Below, piece after piece: positions 5,745 to 37,332 of a DNA stretch of 64,000 bases. The notes beneath the pieces were generated by a model. It searched no databases, was not told the DNA's origin, and saw only the letters and a program-made list of their open reading frames with translations. The translations under genes were made by a program, and so were the position numbers. Position 1 is the first letter of the stretch. Each line of letters opens with the position of its first letter. Source of the DNA: Candidatus Adlerbacteria bacterium (lineage in GTDB: Bacteria > Patescibacteriota > Minisyncoccia > Phycocordibacterales > SBAW01). The stretch is taken from assembly GCA_903851045.1 (NCBI GenBank), contig CAINNF010000018.1, forward strand, positions 3,925 to 67,924, given 5' to 3'.

Positions 5745-6099
5745 ACCTTAAACGAACTGAATGGTTTTGAATGCAAATGCAATTCGAGCGACTTCTTGGA
5801 AAGTAACAGCTTTGCTTTTTCAAAACGATAAATTTCTTTTTCAATATCTTGGTCAAGATAACCATTAAGAAGTCGCTCTAACTTTTTCGACAAAGAAAAA
5901 ATCTTTTCTTCTTTGTCTTTCACACAAGCAATCAAAGACGGGGTGGAGTTTTTGTAGTCATCTAACGCCAAACGATTGAGTTCCTCCGACGGAAATGGTA
6001 AATATAAAAATGAGATTGAGTATAAGGGAGTTGAAAAATGTGTTATAATATTTCTAATAGTTGTATTACTAGAGTAAATCATATATGCCAGATTAAATT

Positions 6100-7587
6100 A
6101 TGAAAAAGGAGGATGAATGGTTAGTTGAGTTTTTTAAACATTTTGAGACGATACTTGCACCAAAGAGGTCAGAACTAAAGGATTGGTCTAAGGCAGCAGA
6201 TTTCCATGTCTTCAGCACGTTCTTAATCAAAGATATTCAAGAAATTCAAGAGTATTTGAAAAATGCCGATGACCAGTATCTTTATTATGTTTGTAGGCAT
6301 ATTTTTAATATTATAGATTGGATCAAACTTATGATTGTTTCTGGTCTTTCAAATTTTGGTATTGCTTTTGAAAACGTTTTTGATAAGCAATTTGGAGATA
6401 AATACATTCTGCAAAATTTGTATGATGCTTGTTTTGAAAAGTGGATTTCTCAAAAGAAAGGGCAATGGAAAATTGGAGAAAATTTTTATAACATTCTCGA
6501 TTGTAAGTTATATTACCGCAACCATTTTGGAGAGTGGTTTGAAGTCGAAAGAAGAACGGCCTTTGACCTTCTACCAGACAAAAAGCTTCTTGAAAACAAT
6601 TATTTAATCGAACAATTGAATAGCGAATGCAAAGAAACTTGGTACGATGCAATAATCAGAAAATGGGAAGATAAAAAATATCAGGGAGTACTACCAGATA
6701 ATTTTTTGAAATTTAATAAGGAAGAAACGAGTCCCGAAGAATATTCTGATTTTACAATTGAGAACATTAAAACATTAATAAAAAATCCGGTATCAATTGC
6801 GGAACTGGAACGCTGGAATAACGGCAAGATTTTGGATATAGAACACATCGTGAAAATAGCTTCTGGTGTATTAGAAATGGTAACAAAAAGGAGAGAAGAT
6901 AATTGTCATACTATATATCTTTTACGAGACTGTCTAGTGTTCTATGAAGTACACAAGACCATTGACCTCTTAAATTCGGAGCAGACTTCCGCTGATCAAA
7001 TATTGATTGGACGAAAATTACTCACACATGAATTAAGAGAATGGGGGTATTATGTAGTAACACTCGAATCTCTTTATATAGCTCATGACCGCTATCCAGA
7101 AAATTTTAGAGATTTCTACAATGAGTATGCAAGACTACTGGATATGTTCGTCTCTTTAAATCCAGGATTCGCAACTATTATATCTAATCTTGCTGAGTAC
7201 ATATCGGAACATATTCAAACAGACACAAATAAAATAGTTGTTTTCGACATAGGATTTCAAGGATCGATAGCACTATTAACAAAGTACATAATAGATCGCC
7301 ATATCAAGTCAAATGCCCCCAACAAAACAATGGAAACAGATGTGAAAATTGGTGTGGGTGCCGAATGGTCTAAGGGTTTGTTTGGAGATAGATATGAGAA
7401 TGACTGTTTTCCATTTCTAAATCGTTTGCAATTAATGGCAAGAAGTGATGAATTATTTCACTATAAACTGGGAAGTCTACATTCAGGTAAACTCCAGATT
7501 GTAATGGGTGATAAAGAATCGCAACATAAAGCTACCGTTGAACTTGTTGTTCTTGTAATGGTGACTCTATTGGCACAGAGTGAGTAA
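6100..7587 (+). CDS. hypothetical protein (island cargo), 495 aa
   Basis: Long clean ORF in the AT-rich island; no motif recognised. Confidence 0.5.
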   Translation: MKKEDEWLVEFFKHFETILAPKRSELKDWSKAADFHVFSTFLIKDIQEIQEYLKNADDQYLYYVCRHIFNIIDWIKLMIVSGLSNFGIAFENVFDKQFGDKYILQNLYDACFEKWISQKKGQWKIGENFYNILDCKLYYRNHFGEWFEVERRTAFDLLPDKKLLENNYLIEQLNSECKETWYDAIIRKWEDKKYQGVLPDNFLKFNKEETSPEEYSDFTIENIKTLIKNPVSIAELERWNNGKILDIEHIVKIASGVLEMVTKRREDNCHTIYLLRDCLVFYEVHKTIDLLNSEQTSADQILIGRKLLTHELREWGYYVVTLESLYIAHDRYPENFRDFYNEYARLLDMFVSLNPGFATIISNLAEYISEHIQTDTNKIVVFDIGFQGSIALLTKYIIDRHIKSNAPNKTMETDVKIGVGAEWSKGLFGDRYENDCFPFLNRLQLMARSDELFHYKLGSLHSGKLQIVMGDKESQHKATVELVVLVMVTLLAQSE

Positions 7588-7791
7588 AAAGGATATTGCT
7601 ACTATATCCAAGTTAATTTTGATGGTTTGGTTTTGACTTTCTTGGTGCATACACACCGATTTTTTTTGCAAACCGCACAAATATTATTCGCTGACATATT
7701 GGTGGGTTTCACCACATCACCATTATTTTTTTTCTGTTCGTCACTCATATTGTTTAATTATTTTAAATAAGGGTAATGCCTAGATAAACGT

Positions 7792-8763
7792 CTATTTTGT
7801 TTTGAAATTATCCAATATAGCGCAACTTTCCCGAATGTATTTCTTTGACCTCTCTAAATTTGCTGGGAGGGTCGAAACCATATGCCCTGATGAATCAGTC
7901 TGTGCGTCAGCGGGTTTTAGACGTCCTTGCGCATCAATAGCGATGCCTGGAAACTCTTTGGCTATTGGCTCAAGTAGATTCACTGAATCTGGTCCCAAAC
8001 CCCCTGCCACTGCAAGACCTAAATATGGAAGTTTACTATGGATTAATCTCAGCAAAGGGAGAAGTTCTCCCGCATCCATACCCTTTCCCTTTCCCATACT
8101 CATGTCTATCAAGGCAAAATCAATTGAATCACCGTACTCACGAAGTCGGTTCACTACTTCCTGAGGATCGCCATCAACAGCTCTTATTGCGAATTTTCCA
8201 AGTTGTAAGATAATGACAATATTTGGATTTCTCTCTTTAAACTTGCTCATTTCATCAGGATCTGGCCAGGTGACATCAAGTTGAATTGCGTGGAGATTTT
8301 TTCCTCCATATTGAACACATAATTCAAGATTTTTAAGGATGTCTGGAGATTCTTTAGCTTCCCATGGTCCGTTTGGGCCATATAAGTCAGCATAATGTAT
8401 AGTATTCAAAACATCTGGGTCATCAGTAAATCCATTTGCCATTTCTTCCGTGGTTGGAAACTCTTTACTTACTTCTTCGCGTACTTTCGGAGGAACCGGT
8501 AAATCAGGATTCAAAACAATAGGATGTGTCATGACCCCAACCATAATCTTCCGATCTGGATTTTTTCTATTTAGTCGAAGCTCATCAGCCATGGCTCGGG
8601 CTTGCTCAGGACTAAATACATCACAAACACCGGAATAACGATCGCGTTCCATGTTATGCAATTGTTCTTCGGCATCGGCATAATTTTTTGCCCTTCCTGA
8701 TTCAACTTTCTCTCGAAGCATCTCTGCTTCTTTTTGTGCTACTCTTTGTGAGTATTTTTCCAT
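7792..8763 (-). CDS. hypothetical protein (island cargo), 323 aa
   Basis: Long clean ORF; contains ALIDMSMGKGKG and LAVAGGLGPD, no confident family. Confidence 0.5.
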   Translation of the reverse strand: MEKYSQRVAQKEAEMLREKVESGRAKNYADAEEQLHNMERDRYSGVCDVFSPEQARAMADELRLNRKNPDRKIMVGVMTHPIVLNPDLPVPPKVREEVSKEFPTTEEMANGFTDDPDVLNTIHYADLYGPNGPWEAKESPDILKNLELCVQYGGKNLHAIQLDVTWPDPDEMSKFKERNPNIVIILQLGKFAIRAVDGDPQEVVNRLREYGDSIDFALIDMSMGKGKGMDAGELLPLLRLIHSKLPYLGLAVAGGLGPDSVNLLEPIAKEFPGIAIDAQGRLKPADAQTDSSGHMVSTLPANLERSKKYIRESCAILDNFKTK

Positions 8764-23869: not shown

Positions 23870-24251
23870 AAATTCTACTAGGATTTATACGGCAGAGCCC
23901 GATGAGGTAATCAAAAGGCTCCCAGCCATTGCGATAGCGCCTTTCGGCAACTACCCATACCCGTTTCCAGATATGACCTAGTAGAGTGACTCTGACTGGG
24001 AGTCCTTTGATCTCTACTAGGTTTTGCAACCATATCCTGAGAATTTGACTTCTTAGGGGTTAGGTCGGCTTGTATTCAATTGTTTGTACCAAGGGGTACA
24101 AGAACAATGATAACATTTTGAGTTATCACTTGGCCACCTTAGCTTAGCTTTGGAGGCTTGCGAAGGAGGTTACCAACAGAGATATGCGCCATCTCTGGCC
24201 TCAATTTGAGCTCACTAATCTATGCGAATGTTTTACTCCCACGAGTGAGTA

Positions 24252-30198: not shown

Positions 30199-31530
30199 AT
30201 GGAACAAATAGCAACAAGGCCCGGTTTGGGAGACACAAGGAGGCAACCCATAGCCCAGCCAGTACGAGTTAGATATTGCCTCTATGCAAGAAAGAGTACC
30301 GAGTCAGAAGAAAGACAGGTCCTTTCTATCGATTCGCAGATCAAGGAGATGCTCCAGTTGGCCGACCGTGAGGGGCTGGAGATAGTCGAATTGAAACGAG
30401 AGAGTCACTCGGCAAAAGAGACTGGGCAGCGACCTGTTTTTAACGAAATAGTAGATGAGCTAAAAGCTGGCAAATATAACGGCATACTCACGTGGGCACC
30501 AGATCGTATTAGCCGCAATGCTGGAGATCTTGGAAAGATAGTAGACCTGATGGATGCGGGGACACTTCAGGAAATACGTACTCATAGTCAAAGTTTTAGG
30601 AATAACCCCAACGAAAAGTTCCTTCTGATGATTCTCGGGTCGCAAGCGAAGCTCGAAAACGATAACCGAGGCGTAAATGTTAAGCGTGGGCTACGGACAC
30701 GCTGCGAAATGGGCCTTAGGCCGGGGGTTGCCCCAGTGGGATATTCAAATGAGAAACACGCCGACCGTAAATGTCACGCGGTTATCGACGAACTGCGCGC
30801 ACCCGTAATCAAGCAAATGTTTGAGAAAGTGGCGAACGAGCAATGGAGTGGCAGGAAATTGTACCAATGGCTGAAATTCGACCTCAACTTCAAAAGTAGG
30901 GCAAACAAAAACATGACGTTGAGTAGTGTCTACGTGGTACTTCAAAACCCCTTCTACTATGGCGTATTCGAGTATCCAGAAAAGAGCGGCAACTGGTACG
31001 ACGGCAAACATCAACCTCTTATCACCAAGGAGCTGTTCGATAAAGCGCAGGAGCAACTCAAACGAGACCGCATCCTGCGCTCCGATATTAAGGAGTTTGC
31101 CTTTATTAAGCTCATGTTATGTGGGGCTTGCGGCTCGGGCATTACAGCGGAGGAGAAGTTTAAGAAACTAAAGGACGGCACCTCAAACCGCTACGTGTAC
31201 TACGGCTGCACCCGTGCGAGGGACAAGGACTGCAAGAACGGTTACGTACGGGAGGAAGAGTTGATTACTCAGACGGTCAAAATTATGGACCACATCGACC
31301 TCAACAACATCAGCATGCGGGAAAAATTCGAGGCAGAGGTAGACCGTATGCGAAAGTTTCAACGCGCATTCACTGCCACGACAACGGATGCAAAACCGCA
31401 AAAAGAAATCGACCTGCGCGGCTACGCTAAGTATTTACTCAAGGAAGGGAGTGTGACGGAGAAGCGCGAGTTGCTGCTCTGTATTAAGAGCAAGTTGGTA
31501 CTCGACAAGGGAACTCTGAGATTGGAGTAG
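30199..31530 (+). CDS. large serine recombinase (resolvase/invertase N-domain + recombinase + zinc-ribbon)
   Basis: VRYCLYARKSTESEERQVLSIDSQ (catalytic Ser region), ...WAPDRISRN; C-terminal CGACGS...YYGCTRAR zinc ribbon. Confidence 0.85.
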   Translation: MEQIATRPGLGDTRRQPIAQPVRVRYCLYARKSTESEERQVLSIDSQIKEMLQLADREGLEIVELKRESHSAKETGQRPVFNEIVDELKAGKYNGILTWAPDRISRNAGDLGKIVDLMDAGTLQEIRTHSQSFRNNPNEKFLLMILGSQAKLENDNRGVNVKRGLRTRCEMGLRPGVAPVGYSNEKHADRKCHAVIDELRAPVIKQMFEKVANEQWSGRKLYQWLKFDLNFKSRANKNMTLSSVYVVLQNPFYYGVFEYPEKSGNWYDGKHQPLITKELFDKAQEQLKRDRILRSDIKEFAFIKLMLCGACGSGITAEEKFKKLKDGTSNRYVYYGCTRARDKDCKNGYVREEELITQTVKIMDHIDLNNISMREKFEAEVDRMRKFQRAFTATTTDAKPQKEIDLRGYAKYLLKEGSVTEKRELLLCIKSKLVLDKGTLRLE

Positions 31531-31534
31531 CGAT

Positions 31535-32776
31535 CTACTTTCCCTTAAGTCGATCCTTATACTTCTTCCTCTGTAACCCAAGGTGGTACTTATGAAAATC
31601 ATCACTATCGCACTCGTTCTCAATTGTCAGAGCTTGCATACACCGGCCTCGACGATATGGACCGAATAGTTTTGCAAATTCTCCCTGAAACCACTGGAGT
31701 GTGTCGTGCTCGCTACCCGCATTCGTTTCTTTGCTGAAATCAGGATCCCCCGGCAATCTTCCGTATTCGTCCATAGCCCCGCCAGTCCCGTCATTATTGC
31801 CCCACATTATCTCGCCGCCCCAATGAATCGCACGAGGGTCAGGCATGAGCAGGTATCCATGCCCGTAGATATTCCAGTCTGATTTAGAGACATGGCGCTC
31901 AGGATACAACCATTCTTCCCTTGCTGCAGCTAAGTAACGGGTCGCACGACTCTTTATGATGAAATTTATTTCACGAACCTCCTGCTCGGTAAGGTGGCGC
32001 AGAACTTGGACATCGGTGAACTTAAATATTGCATTGCGAAAAGGAAACGAATTGGGGCGCTCTTGCTTCGCAGATTGATATGGATTCCTTACCCATGAAA
32101 GGTTTGTGAGTATCAGTACTTTATCGATCGAGAGTGGAAAAATGGTGTGTGTCCCCTGGAGCCATATCTCGGGATCGTTTGAGTCGCGACACTGATGTGA
32201 TCGGGGTCCGCATTCTCGATTATATACAGTAACGGGGTGATCAGAGACAATAAACTTCGTCTCCGACTGAGAAGCGTCCGCAATGAGCCAGACACATTCC
32301 GTCCAAATGGCGGAATGAATATTACGCAATCGAATCATGGCGCGTAGAATCGCGTCCTTATCCTTGCTTCCGATTTTCTCACTTAAAAACGAGAGGCCTT
32401 TGGGAGTCCTGAGTTTCTGGGTACTCATATAGCGCAAGATGTCCTCAAGGGAAGTTCCCCAATCCTTTAGTGGGTAGCCAAATTTTTCAAAGTACTCGAC
32501 AGCGGGGCGACCTTTCGTGTCTATCTCGCCGAAAAAGTGTTTCTCAATGTCTTTCACTTCAATGCCTCGTATTTTTGTCGTATATAAATCTTCTTCGACG
32601 AAACACTTTTTGCTGCCTTGCCGTTTTACTGCCTTCCTAATATGACGTACACCGCGCGGATCAGTGAAAGTTTCTGGATTCAAATCCAACTGAAACAGTT
32701 CATGTTCGCCAGGTAGCATGAACTTCTTTTGGTACCACTGCGGTACGTAGTGGTGATTTCGGTATTCATCAGGCAT
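31535..32776 (-). CDS. DUF4238-family protein
   Basis: N-terminal HHYVPQWYQKKF matches the DUF4238 signature HY(I/V)PQFYL..F as I recall it. Confidence 0.45.
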   Translation of the reverse strand: MPDEYRNHHYVPQWYQKKFMLPGEHELFQLDLNPETFTDPRGVRHIRKAVKRQGSKKCFVEEDLYTTKIRGIEVKDIEKHFFGEIDTKGRPAVEYFEKFGYPLKDWGTSLEDILRYMSTQKLRTPKGLSFLSEKIGSKDKDAILRAMIRLRNIHSAIWTECVWLIADASQSETKFIVSDHPVTVYNRECGPRSHQCRDSNDPEIWLQGTHTIFPLSIDKVLILTNLSWVRNPYQSAKQERPNSFPFRNAIFKFTDVQVLRHLTEQEVREINFIIKSRATRYLAAAREEWLYPERHVSKSDWNIYGHGYLLMPDPRAIHWGGEIMWGNNDGTGGAMDEYGRLPGDPDFSKETNAGSEHDTLQWFQGEFAKLFGPYRRGRCMQALTIENECDSDDFHKYHLGLQRKKYKDRLKGK

Positions 32777-32907
32777 TCCTAAACATTACTCCTGCCAGCA
32801 AAAAAGTTCGAATCCGCTTAGGGTTCGAACTTTTTTGTCTTTACTCATTTTTTATAGCCCCTTGTTTTATAGGGCACGCGGTCGCGAGACACGCATGCCC
32901 GTTCCTG

Positions 32908-32992
32908 CGGAGGCGGAGAGATTCGAACTCTCGAACCCTTGCGGATTGCCGCCTTTCCAAGGCGGTGCACTCGACCACTATGCGACGCCTCC
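32908..32992 (-). tRNA. tRNA-Ser (GGA), type II
   Basis: Reverse complement GGAGGCG..., anticodon stem CCGCC/GGCGG, loop TTGGAAA, long variable arm, T-arm GAGAG-TTCGAAT-CTCTC, acceptor CGCCTCC. Confidence 0.8.
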
Positions 32993-33475: not shown

Positions 33476-35545
33476 CTACTTCGTAGGGGGGACATGCAAT
33501 GCATACGCTCGGTTAAAGAGATCGTCGACCGCACTACTTCGCGTACCAAGGAGCGGATTAAGATTTATCTTGTCTCCTGGATGCACCATGTCGACGAACG
33601 CCATCCCGTGACCGTGCGTATCGAGATGTTGACCCATCATTATCTGTTTGACCATTTCAGGATCCGCTTTCGCGAGCTTCTCCAAAGCGTCAAGTGCATA
33701 ATTTTGTTGCTCGTGCGTGAGCGTAGCGAACACCTTAAAGTATGGCGAGTGTGGGTCACTGAGTCCTGCGCGCATGAGCGTCCAGTCATTGTTACCCGCA
33801 ACGACTTCGAGCGGAGGGATACCACCTGGAGGAATATGGTCGAGCGGATTCCCCGGGTCAACTGTAAGTGTGGAATCGTCCACATGCACATTCGGTTCAC
33901 CCCAATGAGACGGTGTCGCCGCTCCTGTCCCACTCGGATTGGCTGGCGACCCCGGCTCGGCAAATCTCGCGAAAGGATCTTTGCCACCACCACGCAGATA
34001 GGCCTCATCGTCGATATGTCTTGCAAGATCTCTTTCGGCCATAGCAGCCGAAGGTTGTTGGTCGTTCATGTGCAAGCGAGTACTTTCATCACCCAACACA
34101 ACGGTGTCTGAGGGTGTTGTGGGTGCCGGATGAGTCTCGGTGCTCCAACCTCCAGCGTCAGTCGGAGGATCGGTCACAATGACCACAGGCTCCTTTGCTG
34201 GGCCAAGATCCTCCGCAAGAGGTGGTGGCTTCCCTGAAGGGTCGGTGCTCCACCCTCCAGCATCAGTCACTTCCTTCTCTGCACCACCGATATTGTGCGG
34301 GTCGGTATGGTATCCACCTTCAGGTGCGGGGAGTGGTGATGGCTTACCCGAGTCTGGACCCGGAGCAGGGTGCGATGCCGTGTAAGCATCATGATCGGTC
34401 ACTCCGGGAGGAAAGGCTGCATGCGCCTCGTTCAAGGTTGCTGCAGAAGCCGTGCTGGAGCCGAACGGATTGAGTTTAGACAGATCAATGTTCGTCGGAT
34501 TAAGCTTGTTGAGGTCCATTTGGTGCAAAAGCGCGTCTCCACCACCGAAGCTGAGCCACGCGCCAGTACCGGCACCCGCTGCCGCTGCTGCTCCCACCTG
34601 CATCCAACGTGCATGTTTGTCACGCTTGACCTTGTCTTGAATATGCGTATCCAGCTCTTTGAGCTTAGCTGCAAGTGACTTGGGGTCGAGACTGAGGCTT
34701 GCTGTGGTTTGTGCCACACCTTGCTCATATTTTGCCGCACTGCGCCCGAACAACAACTTGCCCACCGCACCACCAACTGTGGCACCAGCGATACCACCTA
34801 ACAGACGACGCGAAAGAAACGCAAGCCCAAGACCAACCGATGCCGCTCCGCCACTTACTGCCAATGCACCTGCTGTGCCGACCACCGCCATTAAAATAAG
34901 GCGCTGCTTTGGAGGAATTTTCCCGATTGTGTTACTTATGGCTGTAAATATGCGCGACGGCTTCTCACCCTTCGCCCTTGAAATCTCCGTGAGCCGGTTC
35001 GTATGCTCTTGGAGCGCGAAATTTATACCGGCCTTTGCTTTTTCCATGTTCGACCCCTCCGTGTTCAAAGAAATCGCCCTTGTTGCGTCCGCTCGGGCTT
35101 TCTCATATTTAAGACGCGAATCACGCAAGCCAATCTCAAAAGGAGTGAGGGAACTCAGCCGTTGGTCCCCATCTGGAATATCCTCGAGTTTCGGCCAGTC
35201 TTTATGCTTCTTTTTGTACTCTTTTTCGACTTTAGCAGATGCATAAACCGCCTCCTCTGCCGCAAGGCTCGCGCGCGCCTTAGCCATTGCGTCTCGTGCG
35301 TCTTGAATTTTTTCGTCCGGAGTTTTTGGAACCTTTGGGGCTGTTGGAGCAGTTGGAGCAGGACGTGAAACCGAGCTGGGTGCAACTGGAGTAGCGGGTC
35401 CTCCGGCTCCCACAGGAGGAACAACTCCAGGCTGAGCATACTGAAAAGTAGTAGAATAATTTCCAACAGAACCAGGAGCAGACTGAGCTGCGGGCGGTTT
35501 GGGTGTATTGCCTTTTCTTGGACCTGCTCCTGGTGCTGCTGCCAT
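33476..35545 (-). CDS. large Pro/Ala-rich membrane-associated hypothetical protein (689 aa)
   Basis: Low-complexity P/A/G N-terminus, central hydrophobic segments, structured C-terminal domain; no motif recognised. Confidence 0.5.
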   Translation of the reverse strand: MAAAPGAGPRKGNTPKPPAAQSAPGSVGNYSTTFQYAQPGVVPPVGAGGPATPVAPSSVSRPAPTAPTAPKVPKTPDEKIQDARDAMAKARASLAAEEAVYASAKVEKEYKKKHKDWPKLEDIPDGDQRLSSLTPFEIGLRDSRLKYEKARADATRAISLNTEGSNMEKAKAGINFALQEHTNRLTEISRAKGEKPSRIFTAISNTIGKIPPKQRLILMAVVGTAGALAVSGGAASVGLGLAFLSRRLLGGIAGATVGGAVGKLLFGRSAAKYEQGVAQTTASLSLDPKSLAAKLKELDTHIQDKVKRDKHARWMQVGAAAAAGAGTGAWLSFGGGDALLHQMDLNKLNPTNIDLSKLNPFGSSTASAATLNEAHAAFPPGVTDHDAYTASHPAPGPDSGKPSPLPAPEGGYHTDPHNIGGAEKEVTDAGGWSTDPSGKPPPLAEDLGPAKEPVVIVTDPPTDAGGWSTETHPAPTTPSDTVVLGDESTRLHMNDQQPSAAMAERDLARHIDDEAYLRGGGKDPFARFAEPGSPANPSGTGAATPSHWGEPNVHVDDSTLTVDPGNPLDHIPPGGIPPLEVVAGNNDWTLMRAGLSDPHSPYFKVFATLTHEQQNYALDALEKLAKADPEMVKQIMMGQHLDTHGHGMAFVDMVHPGDKINLNPLLGTRSSAVDDLFNRAYALHVPPTK

Positions 35546-35671
35546 AAAAAATTATATAAAATTAGAAGTGTTGCTGATAAGTATGTGCATATGTACACGT
35601 ATAGGATAGGTTAGTTACTAGTCGGGGTCAATGTTATTTTTGGCTGGCGTTGGGGACGAGTTCGGGTGCAA

Positions 35672-35700
35672 GAAAAAAGGCGGCATCCGAAGAAGCCGCC
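35672..35700 (-). terminator. intrinsic terminator (minus strand): GGCGGCTTCTTCGGATGCCGCC + T6
   Basis: Perfect GC hairpin followed by TTTTTT on the minus strand; closes a ~760-nt ORF-free transcript downstream of htpX. Confidence 0.55.
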
Positions 35701-36438
35701 TGCGCACGCCAACTCAACGCTGGCTACCTGTATCTACAAACCTTCAGACAACGGACGACTCTTCGTCGTCGTGGTCTGCCACGCACCGTCCTTCCATTCC
35801 CGCAAGGGCATTCCCCTTTCGAGGAACGTCAGCAGAGCTTCCCACCGCGCAACCATTGCGGTGTAACAACCAACACAAAGACGTTTCATCTTAAGACACT
35901 CTCCTTTCCCACGATAGCAAAAACAAACACACTTACTTCCAGACGCCAAACGCCGCTGTGTGCGGATAGCCTCTGGGAGGTTCGAACCGTGGGGGTTTCG
36001 CTTGACCCGCCTCATGTCTGCGAACACACGGTTCGTGAACATAGCGGATCTGTTGGACTCCCACTCGCCCTGTAAACTGGTCAGACGAGTATATCGCTTG
36101 GATAGTACCGCGTCCTCCGCCGGGCCTCACCTCGAAGTATCGTTCCATCTTCGGACCTTTTACTCGATATTTGGGCCTCGCATCGCTACCTAGACGGCTC
36201 CCGATTCTTCTTGGCCTGTCCGCTCTTGCTTGCGTGCCGCACGCTGGTTTTCCACGATCTGACGCGCGATCGCACGCACCTTGCGCGTGGACCGCAACAC
36301 AGCGGCACGGCCCCAGTGATGCCAACCACGATGACGAAATTTGTTTCCTGGATTCGGCAAGACAAGTCTCCCTGAACGATGCATCAACACTTGCTGTGCT
36401 GACGATTTTTTATACTCCCGCGCGGCGATAGCGTCAAC

Positions 36439-37332
36439 CTACTTATCCCCCATGAGCGCGCGGACCCGATCTTCGATCGGCGGGTGGGTCGAAAAAAGCT
36501 TGGTGATAAGGCTTTGTGCAGCCCCCGCTCCGAACGGATTGGAGATATAGAGGTGAGCGGTCGCGTTGTTCGCTCGTTGCATCGGGAGCTCGTAGGCACC
36601 GATCTTCTGGAGTGCCGAGGCGAGTCCGTCTGGATAGCGTGTGAGCAAGGCACCCGAGGCGTCCGCCAAGAACTCGCGCTTGCGCGAGATGGCGAGCTGG
36701 AGCAGTGTCGCGATGATAGGAGAGAGTACCACGAGCGCGATCGCGAGCGCCATGAGCAGCGGGTTCTGGCGCTCTTCCCTGTCGCGGTCACCACCAAAGA
36801 AGGCTGCGCGCAAAAAGTAGTCGGACAAGAGCGTCACGAACCCGACAAGTACCACCGCGATGGTGGAGACGATCATGTCGCGGTTGCCGATGTGGGAGAG
36901 TTCATGCGCCAAGACCCCTTCGAGTTCGGTGCGGTTCATGATACTGAGGAGCCCGGTCGTCACTGCCACCGATGCATGCGTCGCACTTCGCCCCGTCGCG
37001 AACGCATTGGGAGCTGGGTCATCGATCACGTACACCTTGGGCTTGGGGAGTCCCGCCGTAATCGCAAGATTCTCGACGATACGATGCAACTCGACATACT
37101 CCGGCCCGTCGGCGGGTTGTGCGCCCGCGGTCGCTATGACTATCGTGTCGGAGAACCAAAAACTAAAGATGTTCATCACGACCGCAACGATGACCGCAAC
37201 GAACAAGATACTCGGGTTATTGTAGTAAAAGGATACCGCCCACCCGACGGCGATAACGGTACAGAAAAAGACGAACATAAGCGCCCAGGTCTTGGAGACA
37301 TTTTCGGTCTGATGGGTGTAGAGAGTGGCCAT
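36439..37332 (-). CDS. htpX: zinc metalloprotease HtpX
   Basis: HELSHIGNRD (HExxH) plus four TM helices, 297 aa. Confidence 0.85.
   Translation of the reverse strand: MATLYTHQTENVSKTWALMFVFFCTVIAVGWAVSFYYNNPSILFVAVIVAVVMNIFSFWFSDTIVIATAGAQPADGPEYVELHRIVENLAITAGLPKPKVYVIDDPAPNAFATGRSATHASVAVTTGLLSIMNRTELEGVLAHELSHIGNRDMIVSTIAVVLVGFVTLLSDYFLRAAFFGGDRDREERQNPLLMALAIALVVLSPIIATLLQLAISRKREFLADASGALLTRYPDGLASALQKIGAYELPMQRANNATAHLYISNPFGAGAAQSLITKLFSTHPPIEDRVRALMGDK

Follow-up and report, generated by a model that had tools for sequence, protein, structure and literature searches.

Genes and features downstream of htpX

The DNA analyzed here, to which we refer as the window, is a stretch of 64,000 nucleotides in which the minus-strand gene htpX, encoding a 297-aa Peptidase_M48 protein, ends with a TAG stop codon at 36439 (Table 1). 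The window has a GC content of ~53%, except for an AT-rich island (34%) at 6001-8000. Its organism is present in the sequencing runs SRR8496336, SRR8496337 and ERR4195021. The relatives of its HtpX are found in CPR/Patescibacteria of the class Paceibacteria, among Adlerbacteria- and Kaiserbacteria-like genomes, and the nearest GTDB species representative has an HtpX that is 73% identical. In Paceibacteria, htpX is usually followed on the same strand by the gene for tRNA-Ser(GGA), with a spacer of 32-965 nt, and in many of these loci a promoter-like box adjoins the htpX stop codon. The tRNA-Ser(GGA) gene of the window (32907-32992, minus strand) lies 3.4 kb downstream of htpX, and between the two are the region studied here, the gene for a 689-aa protein, and a 101-aa gene with a weak match to DUF5663. 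On the 3' side of the tRNA gene are a DUF4238 gene (31535-32776, minus strand) and a gene for a large serine recombinase (30199-31530, plus strand), which probably belong to an element integrated beside tRNA-Ser(GGA).

The 689-aa protein, whose gene is the first one downstream of the region, evolves very fast: it shares 54% and 43% identity with P0123 and P0124, which come from lineages whose HtpX is 87-88% identical to that of the window. It has just three relatives among 5.8 billion proteins, and a Pfam domain search of its sequence found no domain. A promoter scan placed promoter-like sites before its gene at 35631-35603 and 35580-35551. When 5.4 kb were scanned for local folds, the strongest one (35450-35599, minus strand, z -3.65) lay over the promoter, start codon and initial codons of this same gene.

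At an HtpX identity of 79-80%, htpX is followed by entirely different genes and units. In L085, htpX is followed by a promoter-to-terminator unit of ~330 nt and then by other genes; in L151, by an alternative oxidase gene; and in L153, by two short promoter-to-terminator units and then tRNA-Ser. Thus, the conserved block LemA-DUF2207-htpX has on its 3' flank a synteny breakpoint, which, as judged from the predicted promoters and terminators, is also a place that collects short transcription units. L085 (6970-7400) and L153 (5255-5540) share the start of another such short unit, GGAGTATAC[C/A]T[A]TGGAGGCA..., which runs from promoter to terminator downstream of htpX and has no obvious ORF; its copy in L085/L087 has no match in Rfam.

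Table 1. Positions of the features described in the text, in window coordinates
Feature	Positions	Strand	Details
htpX, M48 metallopeptidase CDS	36439..37332	minus	ORF list; Pfam PF01435 on the identical protein
Predicted promoter P1	36409..36437	minus	-35 TTGACG (36437-36432), 17-nt spacer, -10 TATAAA (36414-36409)
5' stem-loop	36382..36404	minus	CGUCAGCAC-AGCAA-GUGUUGAUG; opens the inferred transcript
Putative RBS and start codon	36358..36373	minus	AGGGAGAC TTGTC TTG; TTG codon 36360-36358
sORF1	36190..36360	minus	56 codons; Arg-rich, net charge ~+9; MPNPGNKFRHRGWHHWGRAAVLRSTRKVRAIARQIVENQRAARKQERTGQEESGAV
Window-specific interior	35890..36189	minus	~300 nt; location of the two RNase-P-like strings and of a 71-codon ORF
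Second start-context motif	35893..35904	minus	GGAGAGTGTCTT; precedes sORF2; regex scan
sORF2	35734..35889	minus	51 codons; public gene call (L081); dubious
Predicted intrinsic terminator	35673..35700	minus	GGCGGCUUC-UUCG-GAUGCCGCC followed by U6; conserved hairpin
Promoter and leader of the next gene (689-aa protein)	35546..35672	minus	conserved; outside the unit
689-aa membrane protein gene	33476..35545	minus	Pro/Ala-rich; start at 35545

Conserved ends and a variable interior

A search of 5.8 billion proteins yielded HtpX homologues that are 86-88% identical to that of the window, and through these and the homologues of the 689-aa protein we reached the DNA of the sister lineages L088/L089, L090-L092 and L093/L150. 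Conservation was judged across four lineages, i.e. the window, L088, L090 and L093. Contigs encoding an identical HtpX were 100% identical over the studied region, and hence showed no variation within the lineage of the window. Between the window and the three sister lineages, the synonymous sites of htpX are near saturation (pS 0.58-0.61, dS 1.1-1.3). The closest pair of sister lineages, L088 and L090, have HtpX proteins that are 93% identical and an htpX dS of 0.61, and the htpX dS of L090 and L093 is 0.93. Against these near-saturated sites, the conservation of a promoter, a hairpin, a start context and a terminator stands out.

At the 5' end of the region, a sigma-70-type promoter sequence (P1) begins 2 nt past the htpX stop codon. 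Its two hexamers and the CGGGAG in front of them do not vary among the four lineages, and TTGACGC...CGGGAGTATAAA is unchanged throughout. The promoter was missed by a consensus scan because that scan demands a T at position 6 of the -10 box. The first 93-97 nt past the htpX stop are 75-78% identical to those of L090 and L093, and transcription from P1 would start near 36402. The sequence-only reading had considered that the region might simply be a long htpX 3' UTR, and the presence of TTGACG-N17-TATAAA at the same place in four lineages argues against this simple form of the idea.

The first nucleotides of the predicted transcript can form a stem-loop with an energy of -11 kcal/mol (z -3.25 in the window). 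An equivalent hairpin is present in L088, L090 and L093, the energies ranging from -11 to -15 kcal/mol over the four lineages, and 96.9% of the cells in the stem across lineages are paired, versus 21-50% in slid controls. Two pairs of this hairpin are compensatory, with both sides changed in L088; covariation was seen here and nowhere else in the region. By analogy with the leaders of some well-known mRNAs, which are discussed below, the hairpin may stabilize the RNA by protecting its 5' end.

The stem-loop is followed by a purine-rich putative ribosome binding site and a TTG codon, a context (AGGGAGAC-TTGTC-TTG) that is identical in L090. The corresponding sequence of L093 is GAGGGAGGCTAGTCTTG (GAGGGAGGC-TAGTC-TTG), and that of L088 is AGGAGA-N9-ATG. 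In a regex scan of the 64-kb window, the motif GGAG[AG]..GTCTT occurred twice, both times inside the studied region; the second occurrence precedes sORF2, and the second small ORF of L093 is likewise preceded by GGAGA..GTCTT. It should be noted that most genes of the window have no Shine-Dalgarno motif, which makes the reading of these sequences as ribosome binding sites less secure. Instead, these genes carry a -10-like box (TATAAT/TATAC) 6-12 nt upstream of the ATG, suggesting that their mRNAs are leaderless or have very short leaders.

At the other end, the sequence GGCGGCTTCTTCGGATGCCGCC followed by TTTTTT (35700-35673; -15.9 kcal/mol, z -2.7) is predicted to be an intrinsic terminator, overlooked by a simple scan owing to a single T.T mismatch in its stem. 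A hairpin with a U-tract is present at the equivalent place in L088, L090 and L093, with different stem sequences. The terminator and the ~125 nt between it and the next gene are conserved, and share ~66% identity with L090/L093 over ~160 nt. The sequence-only reading had placed an htpX stop codon at 36439 and a strong minus-strand terminator downstream of it, and our comparison bears out both. Because htpX has no terminator of its own, read-through would turn the stretch into a part of the htpX 3' end.

Conservation is restricted to these two ends, and the interior cannot be aligned across lineages. Local alignments of the interiors gave z-scores of -0.8 to 2.0, the level of shuffled sequences, for all pairs except L090-L093 (z 14), where the signal corresponds to the coding sORF1 of those two lineages. 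Even L088 and L090 have interiors that cannot be aligned, despite their 93% identical HtpX proteins. The length is also variable: the distance between the htpX stop and the start of the next gene is 894 nt in the window, 803 nt in L093, 1181 nt in the P0004 contig, and ~630-632 nt in L088, L090 and the P0002 contig, which belongs to the lineage of L090. The window-specific segment 35890..36189 gave no blastn HSP to L088, L090 or L093, and no match in Rfam or Pfam. As judged from these alignments, the conserved ends bracket an interior that is either evolving at or near the neutral rate or has been replaced outright.

Searches beyond the sister lineages gave no counterpart of the region. When it was compared by blastn, nhmmer and tblastx with 80 GTDB loci having an HtpX of 57-73% identity, the 3' end of htpX alone was matched; scans of JGI metagenomes with patterns for the 5' and 3' modules returned 0 and then 56 hits, the latter unrelated; and collections of phages and plasmids contained no match. 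A repeat or mobile element was rejected, since the sequence is found just once in the window and matches neither phages nor plasmids, and an origin of replication was rejected because the region contains no DnaA boxes. Long-range inverted repeats occur at chance level and cross each other, and a possible internal terminator near 35925 was not convincing.

Small ORFs and tests for a structured RNA

The region had been described as lacking ORFs. This does not hold for the minus strand, which contains ORFs of 51-130 codons, including the publicly called 51-aa sORF2. Three ORFs on this strand, with 66, 130 and 102 codons, together tile the region. That they represent a frameshifted pseudogene was rejected, as the sequences following htpX in relatives showed no translated similarity and Pfam gave no match to any of them. 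In a codon-usage log-odds model, for which 24 long ORFs of the window served as the training set, all ORFs of the region, on both strands, score between -0.08 and -0.30 bits per codon, versus +0.27 +/- 0.14 for real genes, and the position-specific GC content is flat for most of them, including the 71-codon ORF of the interior (35933..36148). Thus, of the earlier description as a long untranslated stretch, what stands is that no ORF has normal coding statistics; the word untranslated is made doubtful by the counterpart in L090 and L093, which is demonstrably a protein gene.

In these two lineages, the ORF that begins at the conserved start encodes proteins that are ~60% identical (BLOSUM score 144, versus 31 +/- 6 for shuffles), and the genes differ by ~15 synonymous codon swaps, with a pN of 0.25 versus a pS of 0.76. 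By this pattern of substitutions, the ORF is unquestionably a protein gene under purifying selection in L090 and L093. Gene callers annotate it inconsistently, giving it 65 aa in L090 and 80 aa in L093. The products form a small basic family of ~55 aa (KGKS.HFTGRG...NRH..AAQ; L090 869-1066, L093 1394-1585) that has no Pfam match, and a profile of the two proteins, applied to the six-frame ORFs that follow htpX in every locus, found no further members.

sORF1 is the positional counterpart of this verified gene in the window, and has an alternative in-frame ATG at 36384. The ORFs at the conserved start have 56, 56, 54 and 51 codons in the four lineages, those of the window and L090 having 56. 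In dinucleotide shuffles, an ORF of at least 50 codons arises from that start in ~23% of the cases, and a length of 50-57 codons has a chance of ~0.05 per lineage. The GC content at the three codon positions of sORF1 (.68/.53/.58) matches that of the verified genes (.67/.54/.67 in L090 and.67/.53/.53 in L093), and the three proteins are similarly basic. The codon-usage score of sORF1 is slightly negative (-0.08 per codon). Its similarity to the L090/L093 protein and to the L088 ORF is not significant (p 0.23-0.53), Pfam contains no match to it, and HMMER, run exhaustively against 1.84 billion representative proteins, revealed no genuine homologue; the single match, P0125, was discarded because it is a translated tandem repeat. 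A relationship with the second ORF of L093 was not supported either. The pN/pS values refer to the L090 and L093 copies alone, since those of the window lineage are 100% identical and sORF1 cannot be aligned to the others. From its start context, length and composition, sORF1 is probably translated in the window.

sORF2 is dubious. Among 5.8 billion proteins it matches none but itself, and the idea of a conserved protein was rejected; the codon model gives it -0.17 per codon, and its GC content at the three codon positions resembles that of non-coding DNA. A weak resemblance to the second ORF of L090 has an uncorrected p of 0.04.

The sequence-only reading had also noted many stems, and strings with a loose likeness to the cores of structured RNAs. 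The minimum free energy of the whole region is indeed lower than that of shuffled sequences (z -2.1, 20 shuffles), as it is for the equivalent region of L088 (z -2.7). In sliding segments of 150 nt, however, the mean z-score is only -0.80 in the region and +0.17 +/- 0.89 in the flanking genes; the segment of the region with the best score (z -2.17) is one that includes the terminator. The Rfam search proposed at that stage was run with Rfam 15, and returned no family in the region either at the gathering threshold or at E<=10. At the gathering threshold, cmscan of the 64-kb window identified eight tRNAs and, as the only other Rfam hit, a full-length match to the LOOT RNA (RF03000) at 23933-24066 on the minus strand (72.5 bits, versus a gathering score of 46.4), all of them elsewhere. 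With permissive filters and E<=10, positions 35500-36600 gave no match to RNase P RNA, a riboswitch or a ribozyme; the best match, sbrA, scored 19.5 bits where the threshold is 45, and corresponds to the terminator hairpin, and the others were two eukaryotic snRNA/snoRNA models at noise level. Rfam searches of the equivalent regions of L088 and L087 likewise found no match. In addition, the core of a structured RNA should be conserved, and the lack of conservation of the interior at an HtpX identity of 86-88% therefore argues against one. On these comparisons, the region is not a conserved structured RNA.

The nature of the transcription unit

We favor, with moderate confidence, the view that the region downstream of htpX is an independent transcription unit of ~700 nt, probably the mRNA of a small protein with a long non-conserved tail. 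The sigma-70-type promoter just past the htpX stop would start a transcript near 36402, whose first 25 nt would fold into the stem-loop that may protect its 5' end. The purine-rich ribosome binding site and TTG codon would then open sORF1 (36360..36190), whose 56 codons would specify a small and strongly basic protein. The other ~490 nt, lineage-specific and with no detectable constraint, contain the doubtful 51-codon ORF, and the hairpin-U6 terminator (35700-35673) would end the transcript, stop read-through from htpX and insulate the next gene. Transcripts reading through from htpX would cover the region as well and end at the shared terminator; in this limited sense, the region would serve as the 3' end of htpX. 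The small protein may be under weak sequence constraint, such that the allele of the window has diverged, or has been replaced, beyond recognition. Counting against our view is that ~490 nt of the transcript remain unexplained. Conserved ends with an interior that is free to vary are the opposite of the pattern of a structured RNA. A protein-coding unit is the most economical reading.

Two alternatives hold that the RNA itself is the product. It is unlikely that the region specifies a lineage-specific, ~700-nt non-coding or dual-function RNA acting by base-pairing or structure, even if such an RNA would fit the discrete promoter-to-terminator unit, the conserved 5' stem-loop, the folding that is mildly better than that of shuffles, and the poor coding statistics over most of the length. 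What speaks against it, besides the absence of an Rfam family at E<=10 and the unremarkable sliding-window scores, is that the interior has no conservation of sequence or structure among the sister lineages, so that no covariation can be shown for it, and that the conserved part is a translation-start context which precedes a protein-coding ORF in L090 and L093. There is virtually no likelihood that the region is a diverged form of RNase P RNA or some other large structured RNA already known. This idea goes back to two strings, AAAAGGTCCGAAG and ACAGATCCGCTAT, which are indeed present in the sequence and loosely resemble the conserved strands of helix P4. RNase P RNA genes are known 1-3.5 kb from htpX in L002 (8439-8726) and L006 (5990-6290), and no RNase P RNA was detected anywhere in the 64-kb window. 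However, inspection of the two strings (AAAGGUCCGAAG and ACAGAUCCGCUAU) shows that they are not complementary, and hence cannot form a P4 helix; cmscan of 1.1 kb with permissive filters gave no match at E<=10. Moreover, both strings lie in the ~300-nt segment that has no counterpart in L088, L090 and L093, and an essential RNA would be expected in the sister lineages as well.

A further alternative, possible although on the unlikely side, is that the region is a neutral spacer in a recombination-prone slot, where the signals at the ends serve the neighboring genes and the ORFs arise by chance in GC-rich DNA. According to this alternative, the promoter would be a relic, or an active copy, of the ancestral tRNA-Ser(GGA) promoter, and the terminator would be kept to end htpX transcription and insulate the next gene. 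It is in line with the common htpX-tRNA-Ser(GGA) arrangement of Paceibacteria, with promoter-like boxes abutting the htpX stop, and with the 3.4 kb that now separate the two genes in the window. The interiors of L088 and L090, unalignable at 93% HtpX identity and a dS of 0.61, the variable length of the unit (630-1181 nt from htpX to the next gene in close relatives), and the orphan ORFs of the window with their non-coding statistics also speak for a spacer. Left unexplained, however, are the conserved 5' hairpin with its compensatory changes and the exact RBS-TTG context at a divergence that scrambles neutral sites, the clustering of ORF lengths at 51-56 codons, and the purifying selection on the L090/L093 ORF.

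A more specific proposal is that the fixed promoter, hairpin, RBS-TTG and terminator constitute an expression socket, in which the cargo of small ORFs or RNAs has repeatedly been swapped among sister CPR lineages. We regard this as speculative and rather improbable. The unrelated interiors of L088 and L090, with their 93% identical HtpX proteins, are consistent with it, as is the start motif GGAGA..GTCTT, of which the window and L093 each have a second copy ahead of another ORF. If it were true, the slot would be a hypervariable locus for small proteins, which might be linked to the adjoining fast-evolving surface protein and to host interaction; with cargo replacement, episymbiotic bacteria would have such a locus next to a variable surface protein.

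The post-htpX unit is a fairly ordinary feature of low novelty, and the value of its analysis is mainly corrective: a long, seemingly empty stretch with stems in a CPR genome would be a small, separately promoted unit in a slot that evolves fast, and not a new ribozyme or large structured RNA. The analysis also adds one probable small-protein gene that had been missed, together with the clearly coding L090/L093 family. It further suggests that, in reduced genomes, expression signals can outlast the sequence they express.

The unit can be compared with several known systems. Large bacterial RNAs such as GOLLD, ROOL, OLE, HEARO and raiA are defined by extensive conserved, covarying structure. 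The region resembles them in its length of several hundred nucleotides, its intergenic position and its own terminator, but has neither an Rfam hit nor conservation of the interior. To RNase P RNA of class A (RF00010), the resemblance is limited to the two short strings and is a loose one; the absence of a covariance-model match (RF00010/RF00011), of P4, and of the segment itself from the sister lineages sets the region apart. Small RNAs derived from 3' UTRs, such as CpxQ, which comes from the 3' UTR of the envelope-stress gene cpxP, are short and conserved at a terminator-proximal seed, and usually have no long variable body. Like them, the region lies directly downstream of a gene for an envelope-stress protease and shares its only terminator; unlike them, it has a conserved 5' promoter and an unconserved interior of 500-700 nt.

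The leaders of the ompA, ermC and aprE mRNAs carry stabilizing stem-loops at their 5' termini. The hairpin of 8-9 bp with compensatory changes, near the inferred 5' end and upstream of the ribosome binding site, is similar, although the transcription start in the window is inferred and a stabilizing role would be by analogy only. Finally, unannotated bacterial sORF genes of ~50 codons with their own promoter and terminator differ from the unit in that the window copy has no recognizable homologue and no domain or family match, and in that its predicted transcript is ~4x the length of the ORF. What the unit has in common with them is the short transcription unit itself, an RBS-like motif, a non-ATG start codon, a product of ~56 aa, and purifying selection on the copies of the sister lineages.
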